Below, in pieces: positions 3,535 through 53,481 of a DNA stretch of 64,000 bases. The notes beneath the pieces were generated by a model that worked only from the letters and a program-made list of their open reading frames with translations, made no database searches and was not told the origin of the DNA. The number at the start of each line of letters is the position of its first letter. The first letter of the stretch is position 1. Source of the stretch: Bacteroidota bacterium (GTDB taxonomy: Bacteria > Bacteroidota > Bacteroidia > Palsa-948); the NCBI GenBank assembly GCA_016213405.1, contig JACRAM010000006.1, forward strand, positions 29,731 to 93,730, given 5' to 3'. The position numbers and the translations under genes were made by a program.

Positions 3535-3551
3535 GGTGATTGAGATTTAGT

Positions 3552-3577
3552 AGCCCATCCCCAACCCTTCCCGAAGA
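3552..3577. repeat. 26-bp GC-rich element AGCCCATCCCCAACCCTTCCCGAAGA (intergenic copy)
   Basis: 25/26 identical to 35472-35497 inside wzt; it lies in the porin-amt spacer within a larger G/C-rich structured tract. Confidence 0.85.
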
Positions 3578-3662
3578 CAACCATAGGTTGCGACCGCAGG
3601 TAGGAGCTTGAGGGCATATTGTTTTTCTCCTTCCCTTTGGGGAGGCAGGGAGGGGCTTTTTT

Positions 3663-4793
3663 TCAAAATGAAACTCCGAAATGAAATAAGATTTCCAAAC
3701 GGCTGTCTTCGTTTTCTTTCCAGCGGAAAATTTCCTGGTTGGCATCCATCTCTATTTGTCTTGCCTCCAGGCGAACATATGAATTGTCTGTGGGTTTGTA
3801 TTCAACGCCTGCGGTGACTCCCCACAATTTCAATCCGGTTTGTTTATTTTGTTTGTCAATAATAATTCCTCCCATGAATCCCTGCGGGTCATTAAAGATT
3901 TCTTCTCTTGTGTAAACTGCAAACTTTTTCTTCAGTTGATATTTCAATCCAAGCACTCCGCTAAACATGGTTGCGTTGTTCTTATTTAATGTGTCTCCGT
4001 TTTCCTGCATGCAGTAATCTCCTCCCAGTTGCATTTTAAGTTTTCCGAACTGGTAATTGAAAAATAAATTATTGTGAAAGCGCAGGTGCGAAATGCTGTC
4101 GGCAGCTGTTGGTGTGTCATCGCCAATGTAATTGCTGTAGCCGATGTTTCCTTTATCTCCAAGCGCATACGTGGCAAGCAACCCGAATGATTTCATGCTG
4201 TTGTTATCCTCATAGATATTATATCCGTTCAGCACATACGCATTAATGGAAAGTTCAGCAGTAGGATTATAATTCAAACGGAAGCCGCTTTCGTAATACG
4301 GTTCATAAAAAGTATTGACAGAAATAGAACTCGCAATGTTTTCTTTGGGAAGAAGCCCTTCTGTTCCGAAATGCGTTCTGAAAAATCCTGCATCGAACCA
4401 GAGCTTTTTGCATAGCCGGACGCCAACATGCGCTTCCATTATATTATTGTATGTGCCCGACCAGGAGCTTAGCGGAATATCGCCAAACTGAAGCGCAACA
4501 ATTCCCCGGATCTTTTCCGCGTCATATTGTGCCGTGAGCATTGCCGTGTTTAATCCAAATCCGCTTCGCGGACAAACGGAAGGGAACTTCTGGAAACTGC
4601 CATCGCCAACGCTGTCGGTATAATAAGCGTAATAAGCGTCAACATATCCGCTGATAATAATTTTAGCAGAATCTTTTTTTGTACTGACGGAATCTTTTTG
4701 CTGAGCGAAGGAAGTTTTACAAATAAAAAATCCTGCAAGGAGAGCAGGGAAAATCCATCTGAATAAAGAAAAATGTTTCATGGGGGAAAACAA
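3663..4793 (-). CDS. Putative outer-membrane porin (beta-barrel) encoded immediately upstream of amt
   Basis: N-terminal signal peptide (MKHFSLFRWIFPALLAGFFICKTSFAQQ). Alternating aromatic/hydrophilic beta-strand pattern ending in ...HFGVSF. Same strand as amt, 128-bp spacer. Confidence 0.5.
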   Translation of the reverse strand: MFSPMKHFSLFRWIFPALLAGFFICKTSFAQQKDSVSTKKDSAKIIISGYVDAYYAYYTDSVGDGSFQKFPSVCPRSGFGLNTAMLTAQYDAEKIRGIVALQFGDIPLSSWSGTYNNIMEAHVGVRLCKKLWFDAGFFRTHFGTEGLLPKENIASSISVNTFYEPYYESGFRLNYNPTAELSINAYVLNGYNIYEDNNSMKSFGLLATYALGDKGNIGYSNYIGDDTPTAADSISHLRFHNNLFFNYQFGKLKMQLGGDYCMQENGDTLNKNNATMFSGVLGLKYQLKKKFAVYTREEIFNDPQGFMGGIIIDKQNKQTGLKLWGVTAGVEYKPTDNSYVRLEARQIEMDANQEIFRWKENEDSRLEILFHFGVSF

Positions 4794-11987: not shown

Positions 11988-12446
11988 ATGAATATCGCTC
12001 TTATTTGTATGGGAAAAACATCTGAAAAGCACATTGCTGAAGGAATGAAACAGTATATAGAAAGGATTAACCATTATTGTAAATTCAGTTTGGTGGAGAT
12101 TGAAGCAGGAAGGGGCGATGAAACTCAAATCAGGAAAAAGGAATCAGAAGGTATGCTGAAAAGAGCAGGCGAGAAGGATGTATTGATTCTGCTTGATGAA
12201 AAAGGAAAAGAACTTTCTTCTGTTGAATTTGCGAAAACATTAATTCACCATCAGAATATTTCAACTAAGAATCTTGTCTTTGTGATTGGAGGAGCTTACG
12301 GATTTTCGGAAGAAGTTTATAGTCGGGCGAACATGAAAATCTCATTATCGAAAATGACTTTTCCGCATCAGTTAGTGAGAGTAATTTTCCTTGAACAATT
12401 ATACCGTGCGTTTACGATTCTGAAAGGAGAAAAATACCATCATTGA
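11988..12446 (+). CDS. rlmH: 23S rRNA (pseudouridine1915-N3)-methyltransferase RlmH (SPOUT family)
   Basis: 152 aa with the ...LILLDEKGKELSS...VFVIGGAYGFSEEV... pattern typical of YbeA/RlmH. Confidence 0.85.
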   Translation: MNIALICMGKTSEKHIAEGMKQYIERINHYCKFSLVEIEAGRGDETQIRKKESEGMLKRAGEKDVLILLDEKGKELSSVEFAKTLIHHQNISTKNLVFVIGGAYGFSEEVYSRANMKISLSKMTFPHQLVRVIFLEQLYRAFTILKGEKYHH

Positions 12447-13468
12447 TTAGCACGTGATAAATTCAACTGCCATTTCCATGCGCTCTCCATCATCTGTTCA
12501 ATATTGTATTTGGGCGCCCAGCCAAGAATCCGTTGTGCTTTAGAAGAATCAGAAAAAATGGATTCCACATCACCTTCTCTGCGTGGACCGATAATGTAAT
12601 TTAATTTTTTACCACTGACTTTTTCAAATGCGTTAATCGCTTCCATTACTGAAATGCCTTTCCCTGTCCCGAGATTAATAATTTCAAAATTGTTTTTTAC
12701 TTTTTCTTTCATTAAATATTTCAAGGCAAGTATATGCGCATTTGCAATGTCAGAAACGTGAACATAGTCGCGAATGCAGGAACCATCACGTGTGTTATAA
12801 TTATCACCATGGACAATAAAATGTTCAGCCATACCAATTGCTGTTTCAGTTATTGCAGGAACCAGGTTATCGCATTTTCTTCTGGGATGTTCACCAATCA
12901 ACCCCGAAGTATGCGCACCAACAGGATTAAAGTAACGTAAGGCAATTGAATGAATGTCAGGATTACTTTTTGAAAACTCAGCTATGATTTCTTCTCCCAT
13001 TTGCTTGGTGTGTCCATAGGGGGATTGAGCTTTCTGGAGCGGAGTGTCTTCGTTGACGGGAAGTGTATTTATATTTCCGTAAACGGAACATGAAGAAGAA
13101 AAAATAAAATTTTCAACTCCAAATTCTTTCAAACATGAAAGAACATTTTTTAAGGATTCATTATTATTATGATAATACAATTCAGGATTGGCAACTGACT
13201 CGGGAACTGATTTGAGGGCGGCAAAGTGAATCACTCCTTGTATGTCAGGATTTTCAGAAAAAATCTTTTTCGTGAAGCTTTTATTGCATAGATCAATTTC
13301 ATAATTACTGATTGAATTTCCTGTAATAGTTTTTATTCTATCGAATATGGTCGGAAACGAATTGAAAAAATTATCCGCAGAAAGGATATCCCATGAAGTA
13401 GTTTCAAGCATTTCTATAATAGTGTGTGAGCCAATATAACCTGCTCCGCCTGTGATAAGAATTTTCAT
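12440..13468 (-). CDS. galE: UDP-glucose 4-epimerase
   Basis: MKILITGGAGYIGSHT (GxxGxxG), a YxxxK catalytic region, 342 aa; first gene of the polysaccharide locus. Confidence 0.8.
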   Translation of the reverse strand: MKILITGGAGYIGSHTIIEMLETTSWDILSADNFFNSFPTIFDRIKTITGNSISNYEIDLCNKSFTKKIFSENPDIQGVIHFAALKSVPESVANPELYYHNNNESLKNVLSCLKEFGVENFIFSSSCSVYGNINTLPVNEDTPLQKAQSPYGHTKQMGEEIIAEFSKSNPDIHSIALRYFNPVGAHTSGLIGEHPRRKCDNLVPAITETAIGMAEHFIVHGDNYNTRDGSCIRDYVHVSDIANAHILALKYLMKEKVKNNFEIINLGTGKGISVMEAINAFEKVSGKKLNYIIGPRREGDVESIFSDSSKAQRILGWAPKYNIEQMMESAWKWQLNLSRANQ

Positions 13469-17641: not shown

Positions 17642-18655
17642 TTAATTAATACGTTTGCCAATTACATGCCAGTATGGTTCATTAGGCGAGAATGTAAGCT
17701 CTCCTAGTCCGACATTTTCCATCATGACTTTAATTTCTTCTTTGCTAAATCGCTGCTCCAACGGAGTTCCAAATCTATCTAAAGCATCGTTGCGAATTAC
17801 GGTAAAACTCTTTCCTAAGTAATAGGACAAGGGGATTTTTTTGTAATAATTTTTATTTGGAAAAAAAACTTTCATGCATTTTGCAACAATAATAAATGGA
17901 ATGTAAATAAGAACGGCTATTACTTCGCACAAAAAATGTTTTAGAGAAGAAGGCATTTTCGAAATAATAGTTCTTAATAAGTTGGCAGTAGTAAAAATAA
18001 GACGGAATAGAAAATTCCTGTTCTCTAAATTGTAATACAGGTAAAGCAAAAAAAGCCCATTCTTTTTTAATTTCTTAACTGCTTTTGCAAGCGCCATTTC
18101 TGTATGAGGAAGGTGATGCAATACGCCTAAGCAAATGATAAAATCAAAACTTTGGTCAGCAAAAGGAATGTTATCAACTCCTGCTTGAGTAACTCTTACA
18201 TTTTTTTTATCCTGCGTTAATTTCACAGCACTGTAAACCGCTTCGCTTGGGTCAAGTGCTTCAATAAATCCAACCTTATCTGCAAGAAAACGTGACCATC
18301 TTCCGGAACCGCAGCCAAGATCGAGCGCGACCATCTCTTTTGTTAAGTCGGATAGTTTTACAACATCAAAATATTCATTGCCGATATGTTGTATTTCCTC
18401 ATCAGTAAATAAATTAAACTTTTGCCATTCTTCACCAAAAGAATTTATGGTCTCTGTATGTGTGTGTGCATCTTTTTCCTTTACAAAAGATGCGATTTCT
18501 TTACCCTGAAAAGAAATAATTTTTACGGGAGTTTCAATATACGGAAGCATAATCAATCTTTCAGCAATTTTTTTTCGTAAAGATAGCGGATAAATATAAT
18601 TGCCATATAAAAACACCAAACCCCGGGTACTATACTTCACCGGGGTTCGGAACAA
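17642..18655 (-). CDS. Class I SAM-dependent methyltransferase (Methyltransf_11-like) with C-terminal hydrophobic segment
   Basis: LDLGCGSGRWS motif I and DFIICLGVLHH motif; 337 aa. Confidence 0.7.
   Translation of the reverse strand: MFRTPVKYSTRGLVFLYGNYIYPLSLRKKIAERLIMLPYIETPVKIISFQGKEIASFVKEKDAHTHTETINSFGEEWQKFNLFTDEEIQHIGNEYFDVVKLSDLTKEMVALDLGCGSGRWSRFLADKVGFIEALDPSEAVYSAVKLTQDKKNVRVTQAGVDNIPFADQSFDFIICLGVLHHLPHTEMALAKAVKKLKKNGLFLLYLYYNLENRNFLFRLIFTTANLLRTIISKMPSSLKHFLCEVIAVLIYIPFIIVAKCMKVFFPNKNYYKKIPLSYYLGKSFTVIRNDALDRFGTPLEQRFSKEEIKVMMENVGLGELTFSPNEPYWHVIGKRIN
18608..18646 (-). terminator. Rho-independent terminator for the 207-aa GC-rich gene
   Basis: Minus-sense AACCCCGGUGAAGUAUAGUACCCGGGGUU stem-loop followed by GGUGUUUUU. 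Confidence 0.6.
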
Positions 18656-24322: not shown

Positions 24323-25048
24323 TCATTTCTTTCGGGCAACAATGATATTATTGATGAAAATATCCTTATTAACCGGTAAAATAAAGGAGAAGAATAGTTC
24401 AACAAGGGTTAAGGGGAAAATAATAAGTAGAGTAAAAAAGAATTTAATGAGTTTTATATTGGGCATTGCTGTAAATAAATAATCATTGAATAATTGTGCT
24501 ACTACCAGCAAGTAGTTGCCTTTTTTTTCCTGAACAATAATTTCAAATCCATTTTTTTTCAATAAATATTTAATTCCAAAAGAAGTATAGCGTACGCTGT
24601 CATTGGGCTTTTCATTTTCCTTCCATACAAAAGGAACGGTAAGTAAAAAACAGCCATTCTTTTTGAGTACCCGGTTTAATTCAGGAATTATTTCTTCCAC
24701 ATTAAAAATATGGGTCAACGCCTCGGAACTAAATAGTGAATCAAAATATTCATCATCGAAAGGAATCTTTTTTCCATCATAAAATTTATCAACAAAAGAA
24801 ATATCATTGTTGTGTGCAGAGTTCTTTATTTCAACCCCTATATGATGTTTTACATTAAACAGTGAATGATATGGTTTCGTCCCGCATCCAAAGTCAAGCA
24901 TCGTCCCTACCATATAGTGTGCATTTTTTTTAATACCTGATGATATGCCTCTTGAGATGATATAATTAGAATTAATTACAATAGAATACCATGCGGGAAT
25001 AAAAACCTGCCTACGATAATATTTTTTTAATGAATCTATCAGCTTCAT
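24323..25048 (-). CDS. Class I SAM-dependent methyltransferase
   Basis: LDFGCGTKPY motif I; 241 aa with a C-terminal hydrophobic tail. Confidence 0.6.
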   Translation of the reverse strand: MKLIDSLKKYYRRQVFIPAWYSIVINSNYIISRGISSGIKKNAHYMVGTMLDFGCGTKPYHSLFNVKHHIGVEIKNSAHNNDISFVDKFYDGKKIPFDDEYFDSLFSSEALTHIFNVEEIIPELNRVLKKNGCFLLTVPFVWKENEKPNDSVRYTSFGIKYLLKKNGFEIIVQEKKGNYLLVVAQLFNDYLFTAMPNIKLIKFFFTLLIIFPLTLVELFFSFILPVNKDIFINNIIVARKK

Positions 25049-37858: not shown

Positions 37859-40800
37859 ATGTTCAATTCCTCAAAGCTGTGTTTTTGCTTTAAGAGAGCC
37901 ATCAGGATTTACTTTCTGATTATTTGTTTATGTAATAGTAATATTAGTTTTTCTCAGGCATTTAGTCCCTCAGATATTAATGGTTTAAGATTATGGTTGA
38001 GGTCAGATACCAATAATTTTCTATTAAGTGGAAGTTTAATTGACCAATGGAATGATATAAGTGGCAATGGGAATAATGCTTTTCAAGCTACAAGTGGGTT
38101 GAGACCATCTTTGATTAGTTCTGATACATTGTTATTTAATTATCCGGTTGTAAAATTTGATGGTGTAAATACAAGACTGGAAACGATGTTTACGCAACCC
38201 GATGCATACAGCATATTTATTATATATGCACATCGAAATGGTGACCGTGGTTCATTTTATAGTACCAATACATCTGGTTATCCATTGCAAAGGGATACAT
38301 TGATATGGCCGAGTACCAATGCTGCATATTACGTCTTGACAGATTCACTCAATTTAAGAAACCTATATGTTGATGTTCACGATTTTCAAAATAATAATTA
38401 TGCTACCTATTTAAACGGAATATACCGAGGAGGATCTCTCAGCCCACGCTTAAAGAGTGGAGGGACTTTTAATATAGGACATGCTATTATTGAACCTCTT
38501 GATGGTAATATTGCTGAATTTTTAATTTATGATGTTGCACTTTCTGATTCCTTAAGAGGATTAGTAGAAATATATTTAATGAACAGGTATGCTCCGCCTG
38601 TAAATCTTGGAGCAGACATTAACATTCCTTATGGTTTCTGTGATACAACACTTGCTGCAGGAAAAAGATTTACTTCTTTTTTATGGAGCACCGGAGCCAC
38701 AACCCAAACAATTCAGGTAAATCAATCAGGTGTTTATTGGGTAACTGTTACAGATATTTTTGGGCGCACATCTTCTGATACAATCAACATAACCTATCCC
38801 GGCAATTTTTCCCCTTTTCCTGATACAATCATTTGTTATGGCACATCAATTCAATGGAACACACAATTAGATACGCTGGGTTATGATTTTCTCTGGAGCA
38901 ATGGTTCTACCGATTCTGTTATTACCATCACACAAGCCGGCACCTATTCCGTTCAGGTAACCGACACAAACGGATGTGCTTTTTATTCTGCCCCGATAAA
39001 TGTTTCTGTTGATTCATTTTCCATCACCGCTTCCTTCGGTCCCGATACTTCTATTTGTTCCGGAGCAAGCATTGGTTTGGTTTCAGGCGCAAGCACGGCA
39101 TTTTCATATTCATGGTCAACAGGAGAAAGTACTTCTTCGATAATTGTTGCACCAACTTCTGCGGGCACCTATTCATTTTCTCTTACGGTTCAGAATATAA
39201 ACGGCTGTACTGCAAAGGATACAATTAATGTAAATGTTAAGGGATTCAAACCCACTGTTGGTTTTATTGTGAATGATGTTTGCTTAGGTGATTCAATGAG
39301 TTTCATTGATACGTCAAGCGCTACTTTTCCAGATGGAATTGACACATGGTTGTGGAATTTTGGAGATGGCAATAATTCTTCTGTACCAAACCCATCACAC
39401 ACTTATACCGCCACAGGAACTTACACCACTTCGCTTACAATAACTACTGATTCCTTATGCACAGCTACCATACAAAAAACAGATACGGTAAATGTTTTAC
39501 CAATTGCCAATTTTAATTTAAGTCCTCCTTACTGCTCCGGATTGGTCTCTTATTTTATGAATGCGTCTTCTATTTCTTCTGGCGCAATTATTCAATGGAA
39601 TTATGATTTCGGTGATGGCTTCACCGGCACTGGTCCGAATGTATCGCATACGTATTCTGCTGCCGGAACTTACTCTGTGCAATTAATAGTTACTTCTGAT
39701 AAGGGTTGCAAGGATACAATTGTAAAAACAATAACTGTTTTTCAATCGCCAACTGCATCTATCACATCCACTTCTGTTTGTGAGGGAAGCAGTACTTCTT
39801 TTTCCGGAAGCGGAGGAGGAAGCTATCTATGGAATTTTGGTGATGGTTCTCCTAATGCTACTTTACAAAATCCTACCCATTTTTATTCTTCCGGAGGAAC
39901 TTATTATGCAACGCTTACTGTTACCGGATCAAATGGATGTTCAAATAAGGATACGGATACTGTGGCTGTTTATTTTTTGCCAAACGCTGCCTTCACCGGC
40001 AACTCTGTTTGTAAGAACAGCCCCTTGCAGTTTACAGATATCAGCACGGTAACAGGAAGCACTATCATTGCATGGAACTGGGGTTTTATAAACGGAACTC
40101 CTTCTTCTTCAATATTGCAGAATCCAACCACCACTTATACTGCTACAGGAACGTATTTTCCTTCACTCACTGTAACTTCCGCGCTGGGATGTTCTTCTTT
40201 AACAACTACACAAACGGTTACAGTTCAGCCATTGCCAACGGCAAACTTTTCTTTTTCACCTAACTATGGAGCGCCACCGCTGACTGTGGATTTTAATAGC
40301 AGCTTATCATCCGGAGCAACAGGATATCAATGGAGTTTTGGAGATGGAGGGCAAAGCGCCCAGCAAAACCCTTCCTATACTTATCTGGATACAGGATTGT
40401 TTCCAATTACTCTCATTGCACAGAATCAATTTGTATGCGTTGATACTGTTTGGGATACTATATATGTTGCTTTGCCTGTTTTAGATATTGCAGTAAAAAC
40501 TGTGAGTACTGTTCAATCAAACAATACTGTTCAGGTGACTGCATGGTTATATAATGCCGGCACGCTTGATGTAAATATGGTAGAACTCTCTGCCTATCTT
40601 GATAACGGAACTCCTGTTCATGAATTCAGAACAGGATTAATCAAACCTCATTTTCCGGCAACATATACTTTCAATTCATCTTTTGAAAATGTGAATGACC
40701 AGCACAGTGTGGTGTGCGTTGATGTGAAAAAAGTAAACGGAAAAGAGGATGATGTTTTTCCCAACAATCATTCGTGCTCGCCAATTACAAATGAGTTTAC

Positions 40801-41050
40801 CGTGCTTGACCCTTTTCCGAATCCTGCAGATGATGAGATTTACTTTTTGTTTATTCTTCCTTCGTCAGGAAAAGTGCTGGCGCAGGTCTATGATGTCAGG
40901 GGAAGGTTAGTGGAGATATTGCTTGATAAAGAAATTTCTAAAGGATTAAGTTCTATAACTTACAATACTATAAAATTGAATAAAGGAATGTATTTTCTTA
41001 AACTCATCTTTGAGGATAAGTCAGTAACAAAAATTTTCCTGAAGAAATAG
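37859..41050 (+). CDS. Secreted LamG-like + multi-PKD-repeat protein with T9SS C-terminal sorting domain
   Basis: Signal peptide, N-terminal concanavalin/LamG-like region, at least 6 repeats of WNFGDG...NPSHTY..GTY (PKD signature), C-terminal ...KGMYFLKLIFEDKSVTKIFLKK typical T9SS CTD. Confidence 0.8.
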   Translation: MFNSSKLCFCFKRAIRIYFLIICLCNSNISFSQAFSPSDINGLRLWLRSDTNNFLLSGSLIDQWNDISGNGNNAFQATSGLRPSLISSDTLLFNYPVVKFDGVNTRLETMFTQPDAYSIFIIYAHRNGDRGSFYSTNTSGYPLQRDTLIWPSTNAAYYVLTDSLNLRNLYVDVHDFQNNNYATYLNGIYRGGSLSPRLKSGGTFNIGHAIIEPLDGNIAEFLIYDVALSDSLRGLVEIYLMNRYAPPVNLGADINIPYGFCDTTLAAGKRFTSFLWSTGATTQTIQVNQSGVYWVTVTDIFGRTSSDTINITYPGNFSPFPDTIICYGTSIQWNTQLDTLGYDFLWSNGSTDSVITITQAGTYSVQVTDTNGCAFYSAPINVSVDSFSITASFGPDTSICSGASIGLVSGASTAFSYSWSTGESTSSIIVAPTSAGTYSFSLTVQNINGCTAKDTINVNVKGFKPTVGFIVNDVCLGDSMSFIDTSSATFPDGIDTWLWNFGDGNNSSVPNPSHTYTATGTYTTSLTITTDSLCTATIQKTDTVNVLPIANFNLSPPYCSGLVSYFMNASSISSGAIIQWNYDFGDGFTGTGPNVSHTYSAAGTYSVQLIVTSDKGCKDTIVKTITVFQSPTASITSTSVCEGSSTSFSGSGGGSYLWNFGDGSPNATLQNPTHFYSSGGTYYATLTVTGSNGCSNKDTDTVAVYFLPNAAFTGNSVCKNSPLQFTDISTVTGSTIIAWNWGFINGTPSSSILQNPTTTYTATGTYFPSLTVTSALGCSSLTTTQTVTVQPLPTANFSFSPNYGAPPLTVDFNSSLSSGATGYQWSFGDGGQSAQQNPSYTYLDTGLFPITLIAQNQFVCVDTVWDTIYVALPVLDIAVKTVSTVQSNNTVQVTAWLYNAGTLDVNMVELSAYLDNGTPVHEFRTGLIKPHFPATYTFNSSFENVNDQHSVVCVDVKKVNGKEDDVFPNNHSCSPITNEFTVLDPFPNPADDEIYFLFILPSSGKVLAQVYDVRGRLVEILLDKEISKGLSSITYNTIKLNKGMYFLKLIFEDKSVTKIFLKK

Positions 41051-41689: not shown

Positions 41690-42391
41690 TTATTTCAGAA
41701 GATTTGGTCTTCGCATTTCAGTTCTTTCTATCGATTTTTCCTGTCTCCATTCTTCTACTTGTTTTGTGTTTCCGGAAAGAAGTATGCCCGGTACTTTCAT
41801 TCCTTTATAATCCGCAGGACGGGTATAAGCTGGAGGTGAGAGAAGCCCATCCTGAAAGGAATCTGTGAGGGCAGAGGTTTCGTCAGAAATAACCCCGGGG
41901 AGCAGGCGGATAATAGAATCGCAAACCACCGCGGCAGGAAGTTCTCCTCCGCTCAGCACATAATCCCCAACTGAAATTTCTTTTGTGATGAAATGCTCCC
42001 GCACGCGTTCATCCACGCCTTTGTAATGCCCGCAAAGAATAATGAGGTTTTTTGCAAGCGAAAGTTTATTCGCCATTTTTTGATTGAACAATGCTCCGTC
42101 AGGCGACATATAAATCACTTCATCATAATCTCTTTTCCCCTTAAGTTTGTTAATGCATTTTGCAATCGGCTCAATCATCATCACCATCCCGGCACCGCCT
42201 CCGTACATATAATCATCCACATGTTTGTATTTGTCTGAAGCATAATTCCGAAGGTTGATGATATTGATCTTTACAAGTTTTTTATCAATAGCTCGCTTTA
42301 CAATTGAATTCTTAAACGGACTTTCAAGCAGTTTTGGAAGAACTGTTATAATGTCAATTTGTAATGGCGTATTTTTTTTACCTTTTTTCAC
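41690..42391 (-). CDS. trmD: tRNA (guanine37-N1)-methyltransferase
   Basis: [15 protein letters not shown]...[13 protein letters not shown]... SPOUT TrmD signature; classic trmD-rplS order. Confidence 0.9.
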
Positions 42392-42669
42392 GTGCCCCGT
42401 TGGATTTTACTATTCATATTTGAAAAATAGTGTTTTAATCGATTTCCAATATAGATTTTTCCATTTCCTGATTTAAGATATTTCTCTCTTCTTAATGCGT
42501 CTTTTTGATTTAAGCAAACTTCATGATAAACTAAAACAAAAGGTCTTCGGTGCTTTGTTGATGCAACAAGTCCTTCGTTATGTTCTGATAATCTTTTTTG
42601 AATATCACTAGTATAACCTGTATACAAATGACTGTCTTTCAAGCTAAATAAAACGTAAGTATAATACAT
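42388..42669 (-). CDS. GIY-YIG nuclease-superfamily protein (UPF0213/YhbQ-like)
   Basis: [30 protein letters not shown] (GIY-x10-YIG pattern). Confidence 0.75.
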
Positions 42670-42757
42670 CTCAAAAATCCTACGGGGCAAGCGAAAGTAA
42701 TCAACATATCTGATTTTCATTTGAGAAATTTGATTTCGTTAAACCGAAACAAAACCT

Positions 42758-42765
42758 TACATTTG
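42758..42765 (+). promoter_or_regulatory. Candidate Bacteroidota -7 promoter box (TACATTTG) upstream of bioB
   Basis: Matches the TAnnTTTG consensus about 20 nt upstream of the bioB ATG. Confidence 0.3.
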
Positions 42766-42784
42766 TCTTTACAATCAATTCTTT

Positions 42785-43768
42785 ATGAAAAAATTTACTA
42801 CTGCGGAGATAAAAGAAATTTACAACACACCATTACTGGATTTAGTTTTCAGGTCGGCAAGTGTGCACCGGATGTTTCATGACCCTTCTGAAGTTCAGGT
42901 GAGTTCCTTGCTATCCATTAAGACAGGCGGTTGTACGGAAGATTGTGGCTATTGTCCGCAGTCAGCGCGCTACCAAACGGATGTTGACGTTCACAAGATG
43001 ATTTCGGTTAATGATGTGATGGATGCAGCTTCAAATGCAAAATCAAGCGGTGCAACGCGCATGTGCCTCGGTGCTGCATGGAGAGAAGTTCGCGATAATT
43101 CTGATTTCGAAAGTGTTCTTCAAATGGTAAAAGGAATAAATGAAATGGGCATGGAAGTCTGTTGCACGCTCGGAATGCTCACAAAAGAGCAGGCGCAGAA
43201 ACTTGCGGATGCAGGACTTTACGCTTACAATCATAATCTGGATTCATCAGAGGATTTCTACAAAAAAATAATCACCACAAGAAAATATGATGACCGCCTA
43301 AACACAATTGAAAATGTGAGAAAGGCAAAGGTCACTGTTTGTTCCGGTGGGATTATCGGAATGGGGGAATCAGCAGATGACAGGATAGAAATGCTGTACA
43401 CGCTTTCCAATTTAAATCCACCGCCTGAATCTGTTCCCATCAACGCATTAGTTCCTGTGGAAGGAACTCCTCTTGAAAAACAAAAACTTGTTTCTATCTG
43501 GGAAATGCTTAGAATAATTGCGACCACCAGAATTGTGATGCCGAAATCAGTAGTGCGATTATCCGCTGGCAGAACGCAGATGTCCTTGGAAGGACAAGCG
43601 CTTTGTTTTTTGGCAGGAGCAAATTCGATTTTTGCAGGAGATAAATTACTGACAACCCCTAATCCGGATTTTAATGAGGATATGGAAATGTTCAAACTCT
43701 TCGGATTGAAATCCCGTGAAGCATTCAAATACGAAAAGGAAAAAATATCAGAAACAGTTTCTGCATGA
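42785..43768 (+). CDS. bioB: Biotin synthase (radical SAM)
   Basis: [11 protein letters not shown] (CxxxCxxC radical-SAM cluster) and the conserved BioB C-terminal region. Confidence 0.95.
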
Positions 43769-44478
43769 CGAAAATTTTACTAGTAGTTTTTTCTTTTATT
43801 GCAACCGCTGGGTTTTCCCAGTCAGGATATTACTTTCATCCCAAGGGCGATGGAGATAAATATTTTGTAGCGCTGGGTTACGGACAAGGAACCGCTCACT
43901 GGAGCTCACTTTTCAAAAGCACTGAGTTTTACGATAAAGATGGCAGAGTGATTAACACAGGCGATTTGGAATTCGCAGCAAACAGTCCGACCAAACAGTA
44001 TGATGTGCATGTGCTGGCGCCTATCAAGCACATTCGTTTGGGTTTAGGAATTTCATTTGAACATCATTATTTGTCCCAATTAAAAATTTATACAAAGAGC
44101 GGAGAAGAATATCTTTTGTTCGATGAAAGTTTACGCTTTGATAAGATTAATTTTATTGCAGAAGTTCCTTTTAACTATGAATCAAAGAAAAAATATTCCT
44201 TCAGCTGGAATTTTAATTGCGGATGGTTTGGCTATACCAATGTGAAGCGTTTTAATTTCATTGGAGAAAAACCTTTTCCTGTTGCGCTGCACGGTGCAAC
44301 CGGTATTACAGTGGATTACCAGTTGTATCCGCAGGTATATGTTTTCGCGTTTCCGAATGTTGAATATAAATACTACAGCAATTCGCATACTGAAGCGCCT
44401 GTTGATATCACTCACCGTGTTTTCTCAGCAAGTGTTATTGCAGGAATACGTGTTGACTTAGGAGCATTTAATTATTGA
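43765..44478 (+). CDS. Uncharacterized secreted, probable outer-membrane beta-barrel-like protein embedded in the bio operon
   Basis: Signal peptide [19 protein letters not shown], alternating beta-pattern, C-terminal ...DLGAFNY. ATGA overlaps with both bioB (stop) and bioF (start). Confidence 0.5.
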
Positions 44479-45665
44479 TTCCATTGAGCGAAGACTTTCT
44501 ACATCACCGTTTGAAGAGCAGAGAAGAACAAGATTTGCTCAGAAAACTTTCTCCCGAAAATAATCTCGTAGATTTTTCTTCCAATGATTATTTAGGATTT
44601 GCTCGCTCCGAAGAATTACAAAAATTTATTACCGCTGAACTCCAAACTCCAAACTCCAAACTCCGAACTGGTTCCACGGGCTCTCGTCTTCTTACCGGCA
44701 ATTCACAGTACGCAGAAGACTTAGAGAAGTTTATTGCTGAATATCATAAAGCGGAAGCAGGCTTGATTTTTAATTCCGGCTATAACGCTAACCTTGGTTT
44801 GATTTCTTCGGTGGCACAAAAAGGAGATGTTATTTTCTATGATGAACTTTCTCATGCTTCCATTTACGATGGAGTGCGTTTGTCAAAGGCAGAATCATTT
44901 CCGTTCAGACACAATGATATATCACATCTTGAAGAAAGATTGAAATTTTACAGAAGCAATCATGACAGCAATTCAAATTGCTTTGTGATTGTTGAAAGTG
45001 TTTATTCTATGGATGGAGATTTTTCTCCTTTGAAAGAAATTACTTCTCTTTGTGAAGAGTATAATGCAAACTTAATTGTTGATGAAGCGCACGCCACCGG
45101 AATCTTTGGACCGAAAGGTGAGGGAAGAGTTGTTGAATTGAATCTCCATGAAAAATTTTTTGCACGTGTTCATACGTTCGGCAAAGCGCTTGGATGCCAC
45201 GGAGCGATTGTTTTAGGAAGTGAATACCTGCGTAATTACCTTATCAATTATGCCCGCTCATTTATCTATACAACTGCACTACCGGTTCATAGTTTAGTGG
45301 TAATAAAATCGTCTTATAATTATCTTTTAAATAGTTATGATAGAATGCTTAAAACCAATGATTTGATAAAATCATTCAAATCGTTAGTAAAGGATAAAAG
45401 TGTTACAGGATTTTTAGAAAGTTCAAGCCCGATTCAGTCATTGGTTGTTGAAGGAAACGAAGAAGTAAAAAGGATTTCTTTGCTTGTTCGGAAAGACGGA
45501 TTTGATGTTCGACCGATTCTCAGTCCAACAGTTCCCAAAGGAAAAGAAAGAATCAGAATTTGTTTGCATACTTTCAATACGCTGGAAGAAATAAAAGGAC
45601 TGCTTTCTTCCTTGAAAAAAAATAGTAATCTTGCCGTTGTAAAGCAAGAGCTAATTTCTGAATGA
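44475..45665 (+). CDS. bioF: 8-amino-7-oxononanoate synthase
   Basis: Class-II aminotransferase fold with ...DEAHATG... and the PLP lysine region (...TFGKALG...). It contains an in-frame AACTCCA x4 heptamer repeat. Confidence 0.85.
   Translation: MIPLSEDFLHHRLKSREEQDLLRKLSPENNLVDFSSNDYLGFARSEELQKFITAELQTPNSKLRTGSTGSRLLTGNSQYAEDLEKFIAEYHKAEAGLIFNSGYNANLGLISSVAQKGDVIFYDELSHASIYDGVRLSKAESFPFRHNDISHLEERLKFYRSNHDSNSNCFVIVESVYSMDGDFSPLKEITSLCEEYNANLIVDEAHATGIFGPKGEGRVVELNLHEKFFARVHTFGKALGCHGAIVLGSEYLRNYLINYARSFIYTTALPVHSLVVIKSSYNYLLNSYDRMLKTNDLIKSFKSLVKDKSVTGFLESSSPIQSLVVEGNEEVKRISLLVRKDGFDVRPILSPTVPKGKERIRICLHTFNTLEEIKGLLSSLKKNSNLAVVKQELISE
44638..44671. repeat. Heptanucleotide tandem repeat (AACTCCA x ~4.7) in frame within bioF
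   Basis: aactccaaactccaaactccaaactccgaactgg; encodes ELQTPNSKLRTG. Confidence 0.9.
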
Positions 45666-46273
45666 GAAAATTTTTTGTCACAGGAATCGGAACGGATGTC
45701 GGTAAAACTGTCACTTCAGCAATTCTTGTTGAAGCGTTGAAAGCAGATTACTGGAAACCCGTTCAGGCGGGAACTTACTACGCAACAGATTCTGAAAATG
45801 TGAAGAAATGGATCAGCAACGAAACAAGTGTCATTCATCCCGAAGCATACAAACTACGCGAACATAAATCTCCTCATGAAGCTTCTGAGATGGAAGGAGT
45901 CACAGTTGATTTTGATAAAATAGTTTTACCTCAAACAAATAACACATTGGTGATTGAAGGCGCAGGTGGAGTGATGGTGCCTGTGAATAAACAATATTAC
46001 ATTATTGATTTGATAAAAAAATTTGACACAGAAACAATTGTGGTAATTCAGAATTATCTTGGAAGTATCAATCATTCCCTCCTTACAATAGACGCCCTCA
46101 AACAGAGAGGAATAAAAATCATCGGACTTGTGTTTAATGGCTCCCCTCACGAACCTTCCAGACAAATCATTGAAAGCTATAGCGGATTGAAAACTATTTC
46201 ATGGATTGTTAATGAGCCGACAATTAACAAAGAAGTGATTTTGAAGTACGCGAAAGATTTTCAGAACATCTGA
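45662..46273 (+). CDS. bioD: Dethiobiotin synthetase
   Basis: MRKFFVTGIGTDVGKTVTSAIL (P-loop), 203 aa. Confidence 0.9.
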   Translation: MRKFFVTGIGTDVGKTVTSAILVEALKADYWKPVQAGTYYATDSENVKKWISNETSVIHPEAYKLREHKSPHEASEMEGVTVDFDKIVLPQTNNTLVIEGAGGVMVPVNKQYYIIDLIKKFDTETIVVIQNYLGSINHSLLTIDALKQRGIKIIGLVFNGSPHEPSRQIIESYSGLKTISWIVNEPTINKEVILKYAKDFQNI

Positions 46274-46309
46274 CTTCTCTCCTGATTTGTATATTCGCTT
46301 TTCCATTCT

Positions 46310-47590
46310 ATGTCACTCTCATCGCGCGATAAAAACATCATCTGGCATCCATACTCGCAGCATCAGCTCAATCCTGATTCTATTGGAATTGTAAAAGCTA
46401 AAGGTGCTTATGTGTATGATCAGAAAGGGAAAAAATACATTGACGCGCTTTCATCCTGGTGGACTTCCATTCACGGACACACTCATCCTTACATCGCAAA
46501 AAAAGTTTTTACCCAATTAAAAAAACTAGAGCATGTCATCTTTGCCGGATTCACTCACGAACCCGCTGTTGAATTGGCTGAACGACTTTTGAAAAAACTT
46601 CCTAAGAATCAAAAAAGAATTTTCTTTTCTGATAATGGTTCTACTGCCGTTGAAGTTGCATTGAAGATGAGTTTTCAATACTGGTATAACAAGGGAACAC
46701 CAAAAACAAAAGTGATTGCGTTCGAGAACGCCTATCACGGAGATACATTCGGAGCGATGTCTGTGAGTGAACGTGGAGCATTCACAAAGCCGTTTGATTT
46801 TGGATTGTTTGATGTGGCTTTTATTGATGCGCCTATTAAAGGAAAAGAAACAGAATCTATTCAACAACTCACATCAGCCATCAACCATCAACCATCAACC
46901 ATTGCAGCATTTATCTTTGAGCCAATTGTGCAGGGAGTTGCCGGAATGGTAATTCACGAAGCCAAAGCACTCAGCGAAATGATTAGGATTTGTAAGGCGA
47001 ATAATATTTTCACAATTGCGGATGAAGTGTTTACGGGATTTGGCAGAACAGGAAAGTTTTTTGCATCAGATTATCTTTCTGAAAAACCTGATATGGTTTG
47101 TCTTTCAAAAGGATTAACGGGCGGAACGATGGCGATGGGTGTTACTTCCTGTACTGCAGAAATCTTCAATGCCTTTCTTTCCGAAGACAGGATGAAAACT
47201 TTTTTTCACGGACATTCATTCACGGCAAACCCTGTTGCTTGTTCAGCTTCTCTCGCAAGTTTGGATTTGATTGAAAAGAAATCTACTAAGGAAAGTATAA
47301 AGAGAATTACAAAGCGACATGAGAAATTTTCAAAAGCACTTATTGGAAATAAGTCAATAAAGGAAATAAGGAAAATTGGTGTTGTTCTTGCGATAGAACT
47401 TAAAACATCTGGCGAAACGTCTTACTTTAATTCCATTCGTGATAAGGCAACTAAGTTTTTTCTTGGCAAAGGAATTTTACTTCGCCCGCTTGGAAATGTG
47501 ATTTATCTTGTTCCGCCTTATTGCATATCCGATAAAGATTTGGATTACATTTACAATTCAATAGAAGAATTCATAGGAATATTAAAATGA
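46310..47590 (+). CDS. bioA: Adenosylmethionine-8-amino-7-oxononanoate aminotransferase
   Basis: Class-III aminotransferase with the [18 protein letters not shown] region. The N-terminal WHPYSQ... is typical of BioA. It carries an in-frame CATCAAC x4 repeat. Confidence 0.9.
46872..46905. repeat. Heptanucleotide tandem repeat (CATCAAC x ~4.8) in frame within bioA
   Basis: catcagccatcaaccatcaaccatcaaccattgc; encodes [12 protein letters not shown]. Confidence 0.9.
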
Positions 47591-47668
47591 TGTTGTTCGA
47601 CCCTGAAAGGGTCGGATATGAATAGCAGCGTTAATTCTATTCATGTTCGACCCCGAAGGGGTCGAATA
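47590..47668. repeat. Tandem pair of GAA-loop hairpins (GTTCGACCCYGAARGGGTCGRA) flanking a small central palindrome, bioA-accC spacer
   Basis: gttcgaccctgaaagggtcgga ... gaatagcagcgttaattctattc ... gttcgaccccgaaggggtcgaa. Confidence 0.8.
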
Positions 47669-47687
47669 CATACGATAAAAATAACTT

Positions 47688-49178
47688 GTGATAATAAAAA
47701 AGGTTCTTATTGCTAACCGCGGAGAGATTGCTCTTCGCATTATGCGTTCGTGCAGGGAAATGGGCATTTCTACCGTTGCGGTTTTTTCTGAAGCGGACAG
47801 GAATGCTCCGTTTGTTCGCTATGCGGATGAAGCGGTTTGTATCGGTCCGCCTCCTTCTTCACAATCTTATCTCAACGGAAAAAAGATTATTGAAGTATGT
47901 AAACAGTTAAAAGTTGACGCTGTTCATCCCGGCTATGGTTTTCTTTCCGAGAATGCTGAGTTTGCCCGTTCAGTTGATAAAGCCGGAATTATTTTCATCG
48001 GACCTCCTGCTGAAGCAATGGAAATGATGGGCGACAAACTTTCTGCAAAAGCTACAGCGAAGAAACATAACGTTCCAATGGTGCCCGGAACTGAAGGAGC
48101 AATAGATGATATTAAAGAAGCAAAAAAAGTCGCTAAAGAAATTGGATTTCCAATTCTCATCAAAGCAAGCGCTGGAGGTGGTGGAAAAGGAATGCGCATA
48201 GTGGAAAAAGAAAATGACCTGGAAGAAGAAGTCAAGCGTGCATCCAGCGAAGCGAAATCTGCTTTTGGAGATGGATCAGTGTTCATTGAAAAATATGTTG
48301 AGAAGCCAAGGCATGTGGAAATTCAAATTCTCGCGGATAAGCACGGCAATGTGGTTTATCTTTTTGAGCGTGAGTGTTCAGTTCAGCGTAGACATCAAAA
48401 GGTTGTGGAGGAAGCGCCATCAACCGTTCTCACTCCTGAAATCAGAAAGAAGATGGGCGAGTGTGCTGTGAGTTTGTCAAAAGCCTGCGGATATGTTGGA
48501 GCGGGAACGGTTGAGTTCCTTGTTGACGCAAAAAAGAATTTCTATTTTCTTGAAGTAAATACGCGCCTACAGGTTGAACACCCGGTCACAGAAATGATAA
48601 CAGGAACTGATCTGGTGAAAGAACAAATCAAAGTTGCTCAAGGAGAAAAACTTTCTTTCAAACAGGAGGATTTAAAAATCAATGGACACTCCATTGAGGT
48701 GCGGGTGTATGCTGAGGACCCGGCAAATAATTTTCTTCCTGATATAGGCAGGCTGGTTTCGTATAAAATTCCTCAAGGAGTTGGAGTGCGTGTAGATGAT
48801 GGCTTTGAAGAAGGAATGGATATTCCGATTTATTATGACCCGATGATTGCCAAACTGATTTCTTACGGAAAGAATAGAGAAGAGGCAATTGCAAGAATGA
48901 TTCGCGCGATTGATGAATATAAAATCATTGGCGTTGAAACTACTTTGCCGTTCTGCAAGTTTGTTCTTAAGCATGAAGCATTCACCTCTGGAAATTTCGA
49001 CACGCATTTTGTAAGCAAATATTTTATTCCTAAAAAATTGTTTCCTGAATCAGAAGACGAGGCATTTGTTGCTGCACTTGTTTCTTCCCGACTTATGAAA
49101 ACTGCAAAGTCAAACATTTCAAATAATCATTCAGCTTCTGTTTCTAAATGGAAAAAGAACCGAATTACTGAAGAATAA
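47688..49178 (+). CDS. accC: Acetyl-CoA carboxylase biotin carboxylase subunit (GTG start)
   Basis: [27 protein letters not shown]..., ATP-grasp core, 496 aa, no BCCP domain. Confidence 0.85.
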
Positions 49179-52053: not shown

Positions 52054-52753
52054 TTATCGCCAGCCCCATTCCTGCAAGAATCGTAACAAGTTTCATGATG
52101 TGAAAGCGGTGCTGTTCGCTGCTTTCAAACAGGATGGTGGTGGATACATGAAGAAAAATTCCTACCACCACTGCCATCAGGTAATTTGAATAGTTGGTAA
52201 TCAAATGCATATTTCCTTCCAGAAGATTTCCGGTGAGCGCTCCGAGCGGGGTCATGAGCGCGAAAACAAATAACCAGAAAAAAGCAATGCCCTTTTTTTG
52301 TCCTGATTGAATGAGCATGCTCATCAGTGCGATGGCAATAGGCACGTTGTGAAGCATGATTCCGGTTGCGAGAGATTTTTTTGTCTCGGTAAATTCACCA
52401 GCCAGCGGCATTCCTTCAATAAAAGAGTGAACAGAAAGAGCAAGCATCACAGCGATGGGGAAAGTTTTTTCTTCGTGCTGGTGAACGTGAATGTGCCCGT
52501 GCTCAATGCCCTCAGAAAAATATTCAATGAGGATTTGAAGAAGAAAGCCAGCGAGAATAAAAATTCCCGTCTTGACATTTGCATTTGAATATATTTCAGG
52601 AATAAGGTGAAGAACGGCAATGGCAAGAAGATAGGCTCCGCTGAAGGCAAGAATCAGTTTCAGTGTTTTGCCTCCGATCTGAAAAAATAAAACGCTGCTT
52701 CCGCTGATGATAACTGTAATGAAGAGGAGTATGTAAATCAATTCGCCTGACAT
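52043..52753 (-). CDS. ZIP-family divalent metal transporter (ZupT-like)
   Basis: 8-TM protein with a His-rich loop (HGHIHVHQHEE) and HSFIEGM in TM4/5. Confidence 0.7.
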   Translation of the reverse strand: MSGELIYILLFITVIISGSSVLFFQIGGKTLKLILAFSGAYLLAIAVLHLIPEIYSNANVKTGIFILAGFLLQILIEYFSEGIEHGHIHVHQHEEKTFPIAVMLALSVHSFIEGMPLAGEFTETKKSLATGIMLHNVPIAIALMSMLIQSGQKKGIAFFWLFVFALMTPLGALTGNLLEGNMHLITNYSNYLMAVVVGIFLHVSTTILFESSEQHRFHIMKLVTILAGMGLAIITA

Positions 52754-53481
52754 TATTTCTTTTTCCCTATGAGGATTAATCTTTCGGATTTTGTTTCATC
52801 AAATTTATTTAAGCTGTAATCGCCAAACAAATGTAGCACCTCCAGTCCGTTTTCAGCGAAAAAGTTTTCAAGGTCTCTTTGAGTATATGCTTTAACCTGT
52901 TCCCGGAATGAAAAACCTTTTCCGTTATCAGTAACAGAAATTTCTTTTACGATGGAATTATCCTCAATGAATCGTTTGATTTCAAACGCAACCTCTTTGC
53001 ATTCCATTTTCTCGTTCGGAATAAGTTCTTTTATTTCTTTATAGGAGTTCATGAAGTCCAGTATAAGCCATCCGTCTTTTTTCAGAGCGCTGGTCATTGA
53101 TTTCACCGCCTTGTTGTTTTCAGCATCTCTTTCAAAATATCCGAAGCTGGTGAATAAACTCAGCACCGCGTTGTAATAATTTATTCTGAAAAAATTTCTT
53201 TGGTCGTGAATATAAAAGGTAAGGTTTTCCTTTTCCGATTTTTTAGCTTCGGCAATATTTTTTTCGCTGATGTCAATGCCCGTAACATCAAATTCTTTTT
53301 CGGCAAGATAAATGGAATGCCTTCCCCGCCCGCAGCCGCAATCAAGAATTTTGTTTTTGGGAGAAAGCTTTAGCAAGGATACCAGATTGCCGAGAAACAA
53401 CTTGGCTTCATCCGCATTGCGGTGCTTGTAAAGCATGCAATAATATTCCGAGCCGAACCAGTCCTGAATCCAGCCGGTCAT
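52753..53481 (-). CDS. Class I SAM-dependent methyltransferase
   Basis: ILDCGCGRGRHS motif I, DVTGIDIS motif II. Confidence 0.75.
   Translation of the reverse strand: MTGWIQDWFGSEYYCMLYKHRNADEAKLFLGNLVSLLKLSPKNKILDCGCGRGRHSIYLAEKEFDVTGIDISEKNIAEAKKSEKENLTFYIHDQRNFFRINYYNAVLSLFTSFGYFERDAENNKAVKSMTSALKKDGWLILDFMNSYKEIKELIPNEKMECKEVAFEIKRFIEDNSIVKEISVTDNGKGFSFREQVKAYTQRDLENFFAENGLEVLHLFGDYSLNKFDETKSERLILIGKKK

Follow-up and report, generated by a model that had tools for sequence, protein, structure and literature searches.

A family of predicted outer-membrane beta-barrels encoded in biotin operons of uncultured Bacteroidota, probably an optional accessory of biotin metabolism

Introduction

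What does an unnamed gene do between two genes of a biotin synthesis operon? This question is raised by a locus in a 64,000-nucleotide stretch of DNA (the window) from a Bacteroidota bacterium (assembly GCA_016213405.1, contig JACRAM010000006.1). An earlier reading, made from the letters alone (the sequence-only reading), had placed a 237-amino-acid open reading frame (ORF), here called gene X, between bioB and bioF in a bio operon. The ORF is present at 43765-44478 (+), with its stop codon at 44476-44478, and family models identify the neighbours as proposed. The encoded protein is 'hypothetical protein HY841_00760', and X has no paralogue in the window. Few vitamin pathways have been mapped as thoroughly as that of biotin, whose known transporters, BioY and YigM, belong to the inner membrane only. 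The sequence-only reading offered two roles for X, an uptake channel for biotin or a precursor and a non-canonical step in pimeloyl-ACP ester processing. The analysis described here indicates that X probably serves biotin metabolism as an optional accessory in the envelope and is not a missing biosynthetic enzyme.

Gene X is found exclusively in biotin gene clusters

Phylogenetic co-occurrence with bio genes, which the sequence-only reading had named as a check, was examined for 15 independent genomic contexts of X. All 15 are bio clusters and none lies outside one, including the contexts of members that are only 22-23% identical to the window protein, so that X is linked exclusively to bio clusters. 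The arrangement (bioB-)X-bioF was found in 13 contexts, one of which (L019) is a short contig cut off upstream of X. One of the remaining two contexts is nadK-X-bioF, with bioB, bioD and bioA located elsewhere, and the other is bioB-X followed by a convergent gene, with no bioF downstream. P0092, in the 22-23% identity class, has X in a bio cluster with entirely different flanking genes. At distant loci the identity is 22-33% for X, compared to 67-73% for BioB and 43-59% for BioF, which makes X the faster-evolving protein.

A search of 5.8 billion proteins identified 54 homologues of X at 54-78% identity, all of them unnamed and derived from metagenome-assembled genomes of uncultured Bacteroidota or from metagenomes. 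A profile search of all 1.84 billion cluster representatives returned just 42 clusters, reaching down to about 20% identity. Since X has 54 close homologues as well as such distant ones, it is a genuine gene and not a chance ORF. Among 185,579 GTDB species representatives X was present at 7 loci in 6 genomes. The sole Pfam match of the X protein was DUF7840 at E 0.066 (13 bits, cutoff 27), NCBIfam gave nothing, and in the PDB nothing significant was found by sequence search and nothing below E 0.1 by profile search. When Pfam was run over 33 members of a wide alignment, the best matches were OMP_b-brl at E 0.02 (two members) and OmpA_membrane at E 0.076 (one member); X itself did not reach the gathering thresholds of OMP_b-brl, OmpA_membrane or OmpW. 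The X profile also matched a 2848-amino-acid protein (P0078) in 38 short stretches, at profile positions ~39-73 corresponding to the first hairpin; probably this protein is built of beta-hairpin repeats and falls outside the family proper.

The X protein is a predicted outer-membrane beta-barrel with conserved loops

The structure of X was modelled with AlphaFold2 on the 54-sequence alignment (pLDDT 81.7, pTM 0.75). In the model an N-terminal helix and a disordered linker are followed by eight long antiparallel strands (aa 34-56, 62-87, 90-101, 124-135, 144-157, 173-188, 191-205 and 214-231) that project past the membrane, and the second long loop carries an extra hairpin. The mature protein, predicted to be an 8-stranded transmembrane beta-barrel, is encoded by 43819-44478 (+). 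In strands beta3 to beta8 the mean Kyte-Doolittle (KD) hydropathy ranges from +0.7 to +3.0 on the outer face and from -2.1 to -0.1 on the inner face; beta3 has I/L/L/I/F (mean KD +3.0) on one side and R/G/G/S/E/H (-2.1) on the other. The hydrophobic face of these six strands is variable and the polar face more conserved, and in beta1 and beta2 the amphipathic pattern is confined to the membrane-proximal halves. Because the outer faces are hydrophobic and the lumen faces polar, X is predicted to be a membrane barrel, with the reverse polarity of a soluble one; this evidence from the alignments is independent of the model. The model is structurally similar to solved outer-membrane (OM) barrels, and PagL, OmpW, FadL and omptins are among its structural matches. 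The model thus shows an OM-barrel fold, in agreement with the beta-barrel that the sequence-only reading had suspected and had proposed to check with AlphaFold.

A conserved charged core lines the modelled barrel (R91, E99, K127, E133, D184, E200, K202, H217 and R229). Family-wide, G60, E99, K127 and G153 are invariant and W46, S48, P86, G93, G95, F98, E133, P135, G167, G227 and R229 nearly so; these residues resemble a structural core made up of salt bridges in the lumen and glycines in the strands. The strongest family motifs sit in the four predicted surface loops, with the loops assigned to the outside according to standard OM protein topology. Loop L1 (aa 57-61, DKDGR; 43933-43947, +) carries the family motif FYDKDG with the invariant G60 and has a mean information of 3.81 bits. 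Loop L2 with its extra hairpin (aa 102-123; 44068-44133, +), placed by alignment and model, leads into LLFDEgLRFDK, and the close family shows no variation at F119, E121, R124, F125, D126 and K127, in or near this loop. The most conserved segment of the protein is L3 (aa 158-172; 44236-44280, +; 3.84 bits), in which R162, N164 and F165 are invariant. In the model pLDDT falls below 50 at residues 160-169, and high conservation together with low model confidence suggests that L3 could act as a flexible lid or as a loop for interactions. Loop L4 (aa 206-213; 44380-44403, +), also placed by alignment and model, follows the motif EYKxYxN. L1 and L3 reach 3.8 bits per position, compared to 2.5-3.0 for the periplasmic turns.

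The N-terminus of X resembles a signal peptide, as the sequence-only reading had stated. A hydrophobic run followed by [S/A]-Q is present in 74 of the 79 full-length members, and 70 of the 79 have K or R within the first six residues. The signal peptide would comprise aa 1-18 (43765-43818, +), with cleavage by signal peptidase I before Gln19, a site read from this sequence pattern and not from a dedicated signal-peptide predictor. The pattern agrees with the 'Q-rule' for signal peptidase I in Bacteroidetes (PMC5837995). X is not a lipoprotein, since no Cys is conserved at the cleavage site. The aromatic C-terminal residue that had been taken as part of the barrel pattern did not hold up as a family feature, as an F, Y or W closes only 13 of the 79 full-length sequences. 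A variable tail follows the conserved last strand (xGhRhDh), and the family as a whole lacks the aromatic-ended C-terminal beta-signal. That signal was derived mainly from Proteobacteria and carries limited weight for X. The structural and genomic claims on X, taken alone, are very likely to hold, and X is the founding member of an unclassified family of small 8-stranded OM beta-barrels (mature length ~218 aa).

X is absent from closely related biotin operons

Metagenome contigs were scanned with the window BioB, and all their ORFs were labelled with the X profile and the bio proteins. The closest BioB relatives, at loci L022 and L023 (92% identity), L026 (88%) and L031 (82%), all lack X. The synteny rplS-trmD / bioB-bioF-bioD-bioA(-accC) is intact at these four loci, and in L022, L026 and L031 the bioB stop codon overlaps the TTG start codon of bioF (cTTGAaa). 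The bioF TTG start overlaps the preceding stop (TTGA) whether X or bioB comes before it, which indicates that the coupling junction is kept without X. In a neighbour-joining tree of BioB the loci with and without X interleave: the window groups with L022 and L023, L001 with L031, and L017 with L032.

The most divergent lineages carry X in the same slot, and this distribution is therefore read most simply as several independent clean losses. X is therefore an accessory to the biotin operon that has been lost repeatedly. The close sister operons without X mean that it is not a required pathway step encoded at that position, and close relatives do without it. In the X-less genomes, a gene at another site may compensate for its absence. 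As X is not required at the operon, its value must depend on the niche.

Repeated loss with no visible consequence for the operon would also be expected if X were an ordinary small OM protein of the OmpX/NspA type, with an adhesive or structural role, that entered between bioB and bioF a single time in an ancestor and has been kept by synteny and translational coupling with no biotin function. All loci with X belong to one lineage, most of them with the same trmD-rplS neighbours, and the low identity of X at loci where BioB and BioF are far better conserved fits such a passenger as well. Clean loss is easy, yet strong purifying selection holds X at its exact position where BioF has diverged to 43%, and X has been retained with bioF alone or bioB alone after rearrangements. 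A passenger gene would also not be expected to lack any member in another context among the 15 examined, or to be without paralogues. In addition, conservation in X is highest in the predicted surface loops, the opposite of typical adhesins and surface antigens. We consider it unlikely that X is a passenger of this kind.

X and the pimelate arm

The sequence-only reading had stated that the window contains no BioC, BioH or BioG gene. This statement stands for the ORFs scanned, none of which reached the cutoff of any of these families, and it does not extend to about ten of the larger ORFs, which were left out of the scan. Among the same scanned ORFs no alpha/beta-hydrolase was found, and BioC, BioH, BioG and BioW were found neither there nor in the flanks of any X locus. 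The best BioC score (26 bits, cutoff 185) was that of a class I S-adenosylmethionine (SAM) methyltransferase at 52753-53481 (-). This is one of three generic SAM methyltransferases in the window, the others being located at 17642-18655 and 24323-25048, and all three score under the BioC cutoffs. The gene at 52753-53481 is syntenic in L001 and not in the other loci with X. As BioC it is unlikely, yet it is the sole conceivable candidate in the window.

In some bio operons the slot beside bioF holds esterase genes, and no canonical esterase was present among the window ORFs scanned. Both observations would suit X as a cytoplasmic, non-canonical pimeloyl-ACP methyl ester enzyme that replaces BioH or BioG. 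The properties of X are those of a different kind of protein: it has a signal peptide in 74 of 79 members and is predicted to be an all-beta membrane barrel with a hydrophobic exterior. It lacks a GxSxG esterase motif, as had been read earlier, and neither X nor the members of the wide alignment match any hydrolase family in Pfam or NCBIfam, alpha/beta-hydrolases included. Moreover, X is absent from otherwise identical sister operons. The signal peptide, the all-beta barrel, the absence of GxSxG and the X-less sister operons rule out a pimeloyl-ACP methyl ester esterase, and the broader proposal of non-canonical pimeloyl-ACP ester processing by an exported, membrane-embedded X is hardly credible. 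The 'missing pimelate arm' is not solved by X, which is no enzyme of that arm.

X could instead serve BioF indirectly, by admitting a pimelate-type dicarboxylate or a fatty-acid-derived precursor in organisms with no recognisable BioC/BioH/BioG route. Precursor import is in line with the lack of BioC, BioH, BioG and BioW in the window scan and the X-locus flanks, and with the genome in which nadK-X-bioF stands without bioB, bioD or bioA alongside. Genomes that encode BioF, BioA, BioD and BioB and have an unknown pimeloyl source form a recognised class (PMC6593275). Free pimelate would, on the other hand, need an activating, BioW-like ligase, and none is linked to X. The sister operons without X keep bioF and have no compensating gene at that position, another genome has bioB-X with no bioF downstream, and the lumen residues of X are polar or charged, unlike those of OmpW. 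Precursor import is for these reasons decidedly unlikely.

Operon organization and promoter

The gene order in the window is bioB-X-bioF-bioD-bioA-accC, all on the + strand. The first gene, bioB (biotin synthase, 42785-43768), scored 401 bits against TIGR00433 (cutoff 225) and has Radical_SAM and BATS domains. X is followed by a bioF-like gene for 8-amino-7-oxononanoate synthase (44475-45665; Aminotran_1_2), whose TIGR00858 score of 345 bits is under the equivalog cutoff of 426, though far above that of every other subfamily. Next are bioD (dethiobiotin synthase, 45662-46273; TIGR00347, 128 bits, cutoff 83) and bioA (adenosylmethionine-8-amino-7-oxononanoate transaminase, 46310-47590; TIGR00508, 545 bits, cutoff 405), and then an accC-like biotin carboxylase gene (47688-49178) with Biotin_carb_N, CPSase_L_D2 and Biotin_carb_C domains.

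X overlaps its neighbours by 4 nt on each side. ATGA overlaps on both sides had been reported earlier; this is correct for the bioB/X junction (gcATGAcg), while at the X/bioF junction the overlap is TTGA, with the TTG start of bioF at 44475. A candidate Bacteroidota-type -7 promoter box (TACATTTG, matching TAnnTTTG; motif as defined in PMC6847099 and PMC9723704) is located at 42758-42765 (+), 27 nt upstream of the bioB ATG, and is the only such box ahead of the operon. Of 17 related loci, 16 have TAnnTTTG in the 80 nt ahead of bioB, and in 14 of these the distance is 26-36 nt, compared to an occurrence in 5% of shuffled 80-mers. The box is also kept in an upstream alignment of 12 loci (A3). 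No terminator-like site was found on the + strand from 42785 to 48709, a range that covers bioB to bioA. X thus shares its strand with the bio genes, is separated from them by no internal terminator or promoter and stays adjacent to them across divergent genomes. Because of the overlaps, the lack of a terminator and the promoter box ahead of bioB only, X is taken to be co-transcribed with the biotin genes and is probably translationally coupled to them. The 'obligatory' co-expression claimed by the sequence-only reading applies to this locus, with its sole promoter box and no terminator-like site, but not to the lineage, as the gene is dispensable in close relatives.

Around the promoter box, GAAACAAAA is conserved directly upstream of TAnnTTTG (window 42740-42770; alignment A3, 12 loci), where it forms an imperfect inverted repeat, ACAAA(A)-N6-(A)TTTGT, over the -7 element in loci with and without X. 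This repeat could be a candidate operator for a biotin-responsive repressor. A palindrome resembling the E. coli bioO operator of BirA was not seen upstream of bioB. In the window only, the divergent promoter region between trmD and bioB, which is ~110 nt of intergenic sequence in related loci, holds a 110-aa ORF with a GIY-YIG domain (42388-42720, -; Pfam E 8e-18), apparently a small insertion.

The accC-like gene is the final member of the cluster in the near clade and is syntenic in loci with and without X. It lies directly 3' of bioA in all near-clade loci, in some of which it overlaps bioA, and no biotin carrier gene (accB) adjoins it at these loci. Its position links a biotin-using enzyme with a biotin-making operon.

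OM enzymes carry characteristic catalytic motifs: His-x-Ser with Glu or Asn in PagL and OMPLA, His/Asp/Ser in PagP, and Asp-x-Asp with Asp-x-His in omptins. None of these motifs is kept throughout the X family: the sole HxS of the window protein, H45-W-S47, has a variable residue at position 45 in the wide alignment, D57-K-D59 is lost in distant members, and H217 is missing from the four most distant.

A biotin carboxylase gene at the end of the operon would fit a role of X in envelope or fatty-acid adaptation to biotin shortage, or as an OM lipid-modifying enzyme co-regulated with bio genes and accC. Some BirA regulons include fatty-acid synthesis genes (PMC5343134). PagL, OmpW, FadL and omptins are among the structural matches of X, and an active site could be formed by the polar residues conserved in its loops. 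No known OM-enzyme motif survives the wide alignment, though, given the variation at H45 and the loss of H217, and the lumen of X is polar, not hydrophobic. The bio operon is expected to be weakly expressed, and bulk lipid flux would fit poorly with a gene inside such an operon. We regard envelope adaptation and lipid modification as improbable roles of X.

Proposed role of X

Exclusive occurrence of the family in bio clusters, conserved surface loops, a bio promoter and optional presence are together best fitted by a role in the binding or OM passage of a biotin-related molecule. We propose this role tentatively, with a confidence that falls somewhat short of even. In this scheme X would be transcribed from the promoter upstream of bioB, its translation would be coupled to that of bioB and bioF, and it would be made only while the bio operon is on. 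The protein would be exported via Sec and signal peptidase I, which would expose an N-terminal Gln, and be inserted into the OM. On the cell surface it would act as a binding protein for a small molecule related to biotin, or it would pass this molecule across the OM, for uptake by an inner-membrane transporter encoded elsewhere. Candidate ligands would be biotin, dethiobiotin or another vitamer, or a pimelate-type precursor. We infer the membrane orientation, the ligand, the transport role and the regulation by biotin. As a precedent, bioYMN transporter genes belong to biotin regulons (PMC5343134). Two distant loci with X have inner-membrane transporter genes next to bio genes: in L017 a gene of the Vut_1 ('putative vitamin uptake transporter') family (12222-12932, +) starts 57 nt after bioA, and in L021 a sodium:solute symporter gene of the SSF family (276-1757, +) lies just upstream of bioB. 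These are weak hints at an uptake theme.

Several points weigh against this proposal. An open pore is usually missing from eight-stranded barrels with a charged interior, such as those of the OmpA, OmpX and NspA types, and the charged, packed-looking lumen of the X model is not an obvious open pore either. A passive barrel is unable to concentrate a picomolar vitamin, and in most X loci no inner-membrane biotin transporter is linked. The family-wide invariant residues (G60, E99, K127, G153 and several Gly and Pro) look structural and not ligand-specific. Control of X by biotin is assumed, and upstream of bioB no BirA-type operator was found, just the imperfect inverted repeat on the -7 box. 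Finally, all genomes with X belong to one lineage of uncultured Bacteroidota, so that inherited synteny could account for part of the positional conservation.

A more specific form of the proposal, which we hold to be rather doubtful, is that X would be the first dedicated OM part of biotin acquisition, with conserved, partly flexible surface loops that would capture biotin or dethiobiotin and pass it on through the OM, and with production only while the bio operon is derepressed. If true, such a capture barrel would account for the retention of X in some lineages and its loss from close relatives. The surface components BtuG and BtuB serve vitamin B12 in Bacteroides, and a biotin-capturing X would have a parallel role with a different fold. 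Should X prove to have no part in uptake, it would nevertheless indicate an envelope response linked to biotin status that has so far gone unrecognised.

Other features of the window

The window contains a second instance of an OM barrel gene beside a nutrient-specific gene: a gene for an OmpL-like beta-barrel porin (3663-4793, -; Pfam BBP2, E 5e-57) lies directly upstream of amt (2311-3534, -), the pair spanning 2311-4793. A polysaccharide-biosynthesis cluster extends over ~12400-37900 (-) and encodes glycosyltransferases, FkbM-type and class I methyltransferases, epimerases/dehydratases, a polysaccharide deacetylase and an ABC-2 exporter permease; it includes the SAM methyltransferase genes at 17642-18655 and 24323-25048. 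At 37859-41050 (+) a 1063-aa protein is encoded that has five PKD repeats and a type IX secretion C-terminal sorting domain (Por_Secre_tail), which confirms that the DNA derives from Bacteroidota.

Comparison with known systems

In its predicted architecture X resembles the class of NspA, OmpX and the transmembrane (TM) domain of OmpA, with eight long antiparallel strands, some of them extending past the membrane, a polar or charged interior and a hydrophobic exterior. It differs from this class in having no detectable sequence relationship to it (7-16% identity in structural alignments), in being ~60 residues larger with the extra L2 hairpin, and in being encoded in a vitamin biosynthesis operon. 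The loops of X are conserved, whereas those of NspA, OmpX and OmpA are hypervariable. X thus adds an unclassified family of 8-stranded OM barrels with unusually conserved surface loops.

The avidin/streptavidin fold gave far lower structural scores against X than OM barrels did. Avidin and streptavidin are soluble proteins with a hydrophobic core and short strands, and X has no Pfam avidin match, so that X does not belong to the avidin family; its likeness to avidin is generic to 8-stranded meander barrels. The esterases of the pimelate arm differ in a similar way. BioH, BioG, BioK, BioJ, BioV and BtsA are patchy, non-orthologous genes that are often located beside bioF or bioC (PMC4751477, PMC6733898, PMC7026016). 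BioH-type esterases are cytoplasmic alpha/beta-hydrolases with a Ser nucleophile, whereas X is exported, all-beta and membrane-embedded according to the predictions and has no GxSxG.

With respect to gene organization, X resembles AlkL, one of the small OM barrels of the OmpW/OprG/AlkL type for hydrophobic substrates, which is encoded within the alk operon for alkane degradation. In both cases the gene for a small OM barrel lies inside the operon of the pathway that it serves or, for X, may serve. The lumen of X is polar or charged, unlike that of the OmpW/OprG/AlkL type, X has no Pfam OmpW match, and the operon around it serves biosynthesis instead of catabolism.

In E. coli, the general porin OmpC lets a biotinylated dye through the OM (PMC8589159), and full-text literature searching found no OM protein linked to biotin operons or biotin uptake. 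The known bacterial biotin transporters are BioY, the S-component of an ECF transporter, and YigM (PMC6593275). Like X, these transport genes are located in, or co-regulated with, biotin operons or regulons, so that scavenging is expressed together with synthesis (PMC5343134, PMC6593275). BioY and YigM are alpha-helical proteins of the inner membrane, whereas X is predicted to be an OM beta-barrel. As a member of a family that is confined to bio operons, predicted to be exported and gained or lost between near-identical operons, X is a concrete candidate for the OM layer that would complement them.

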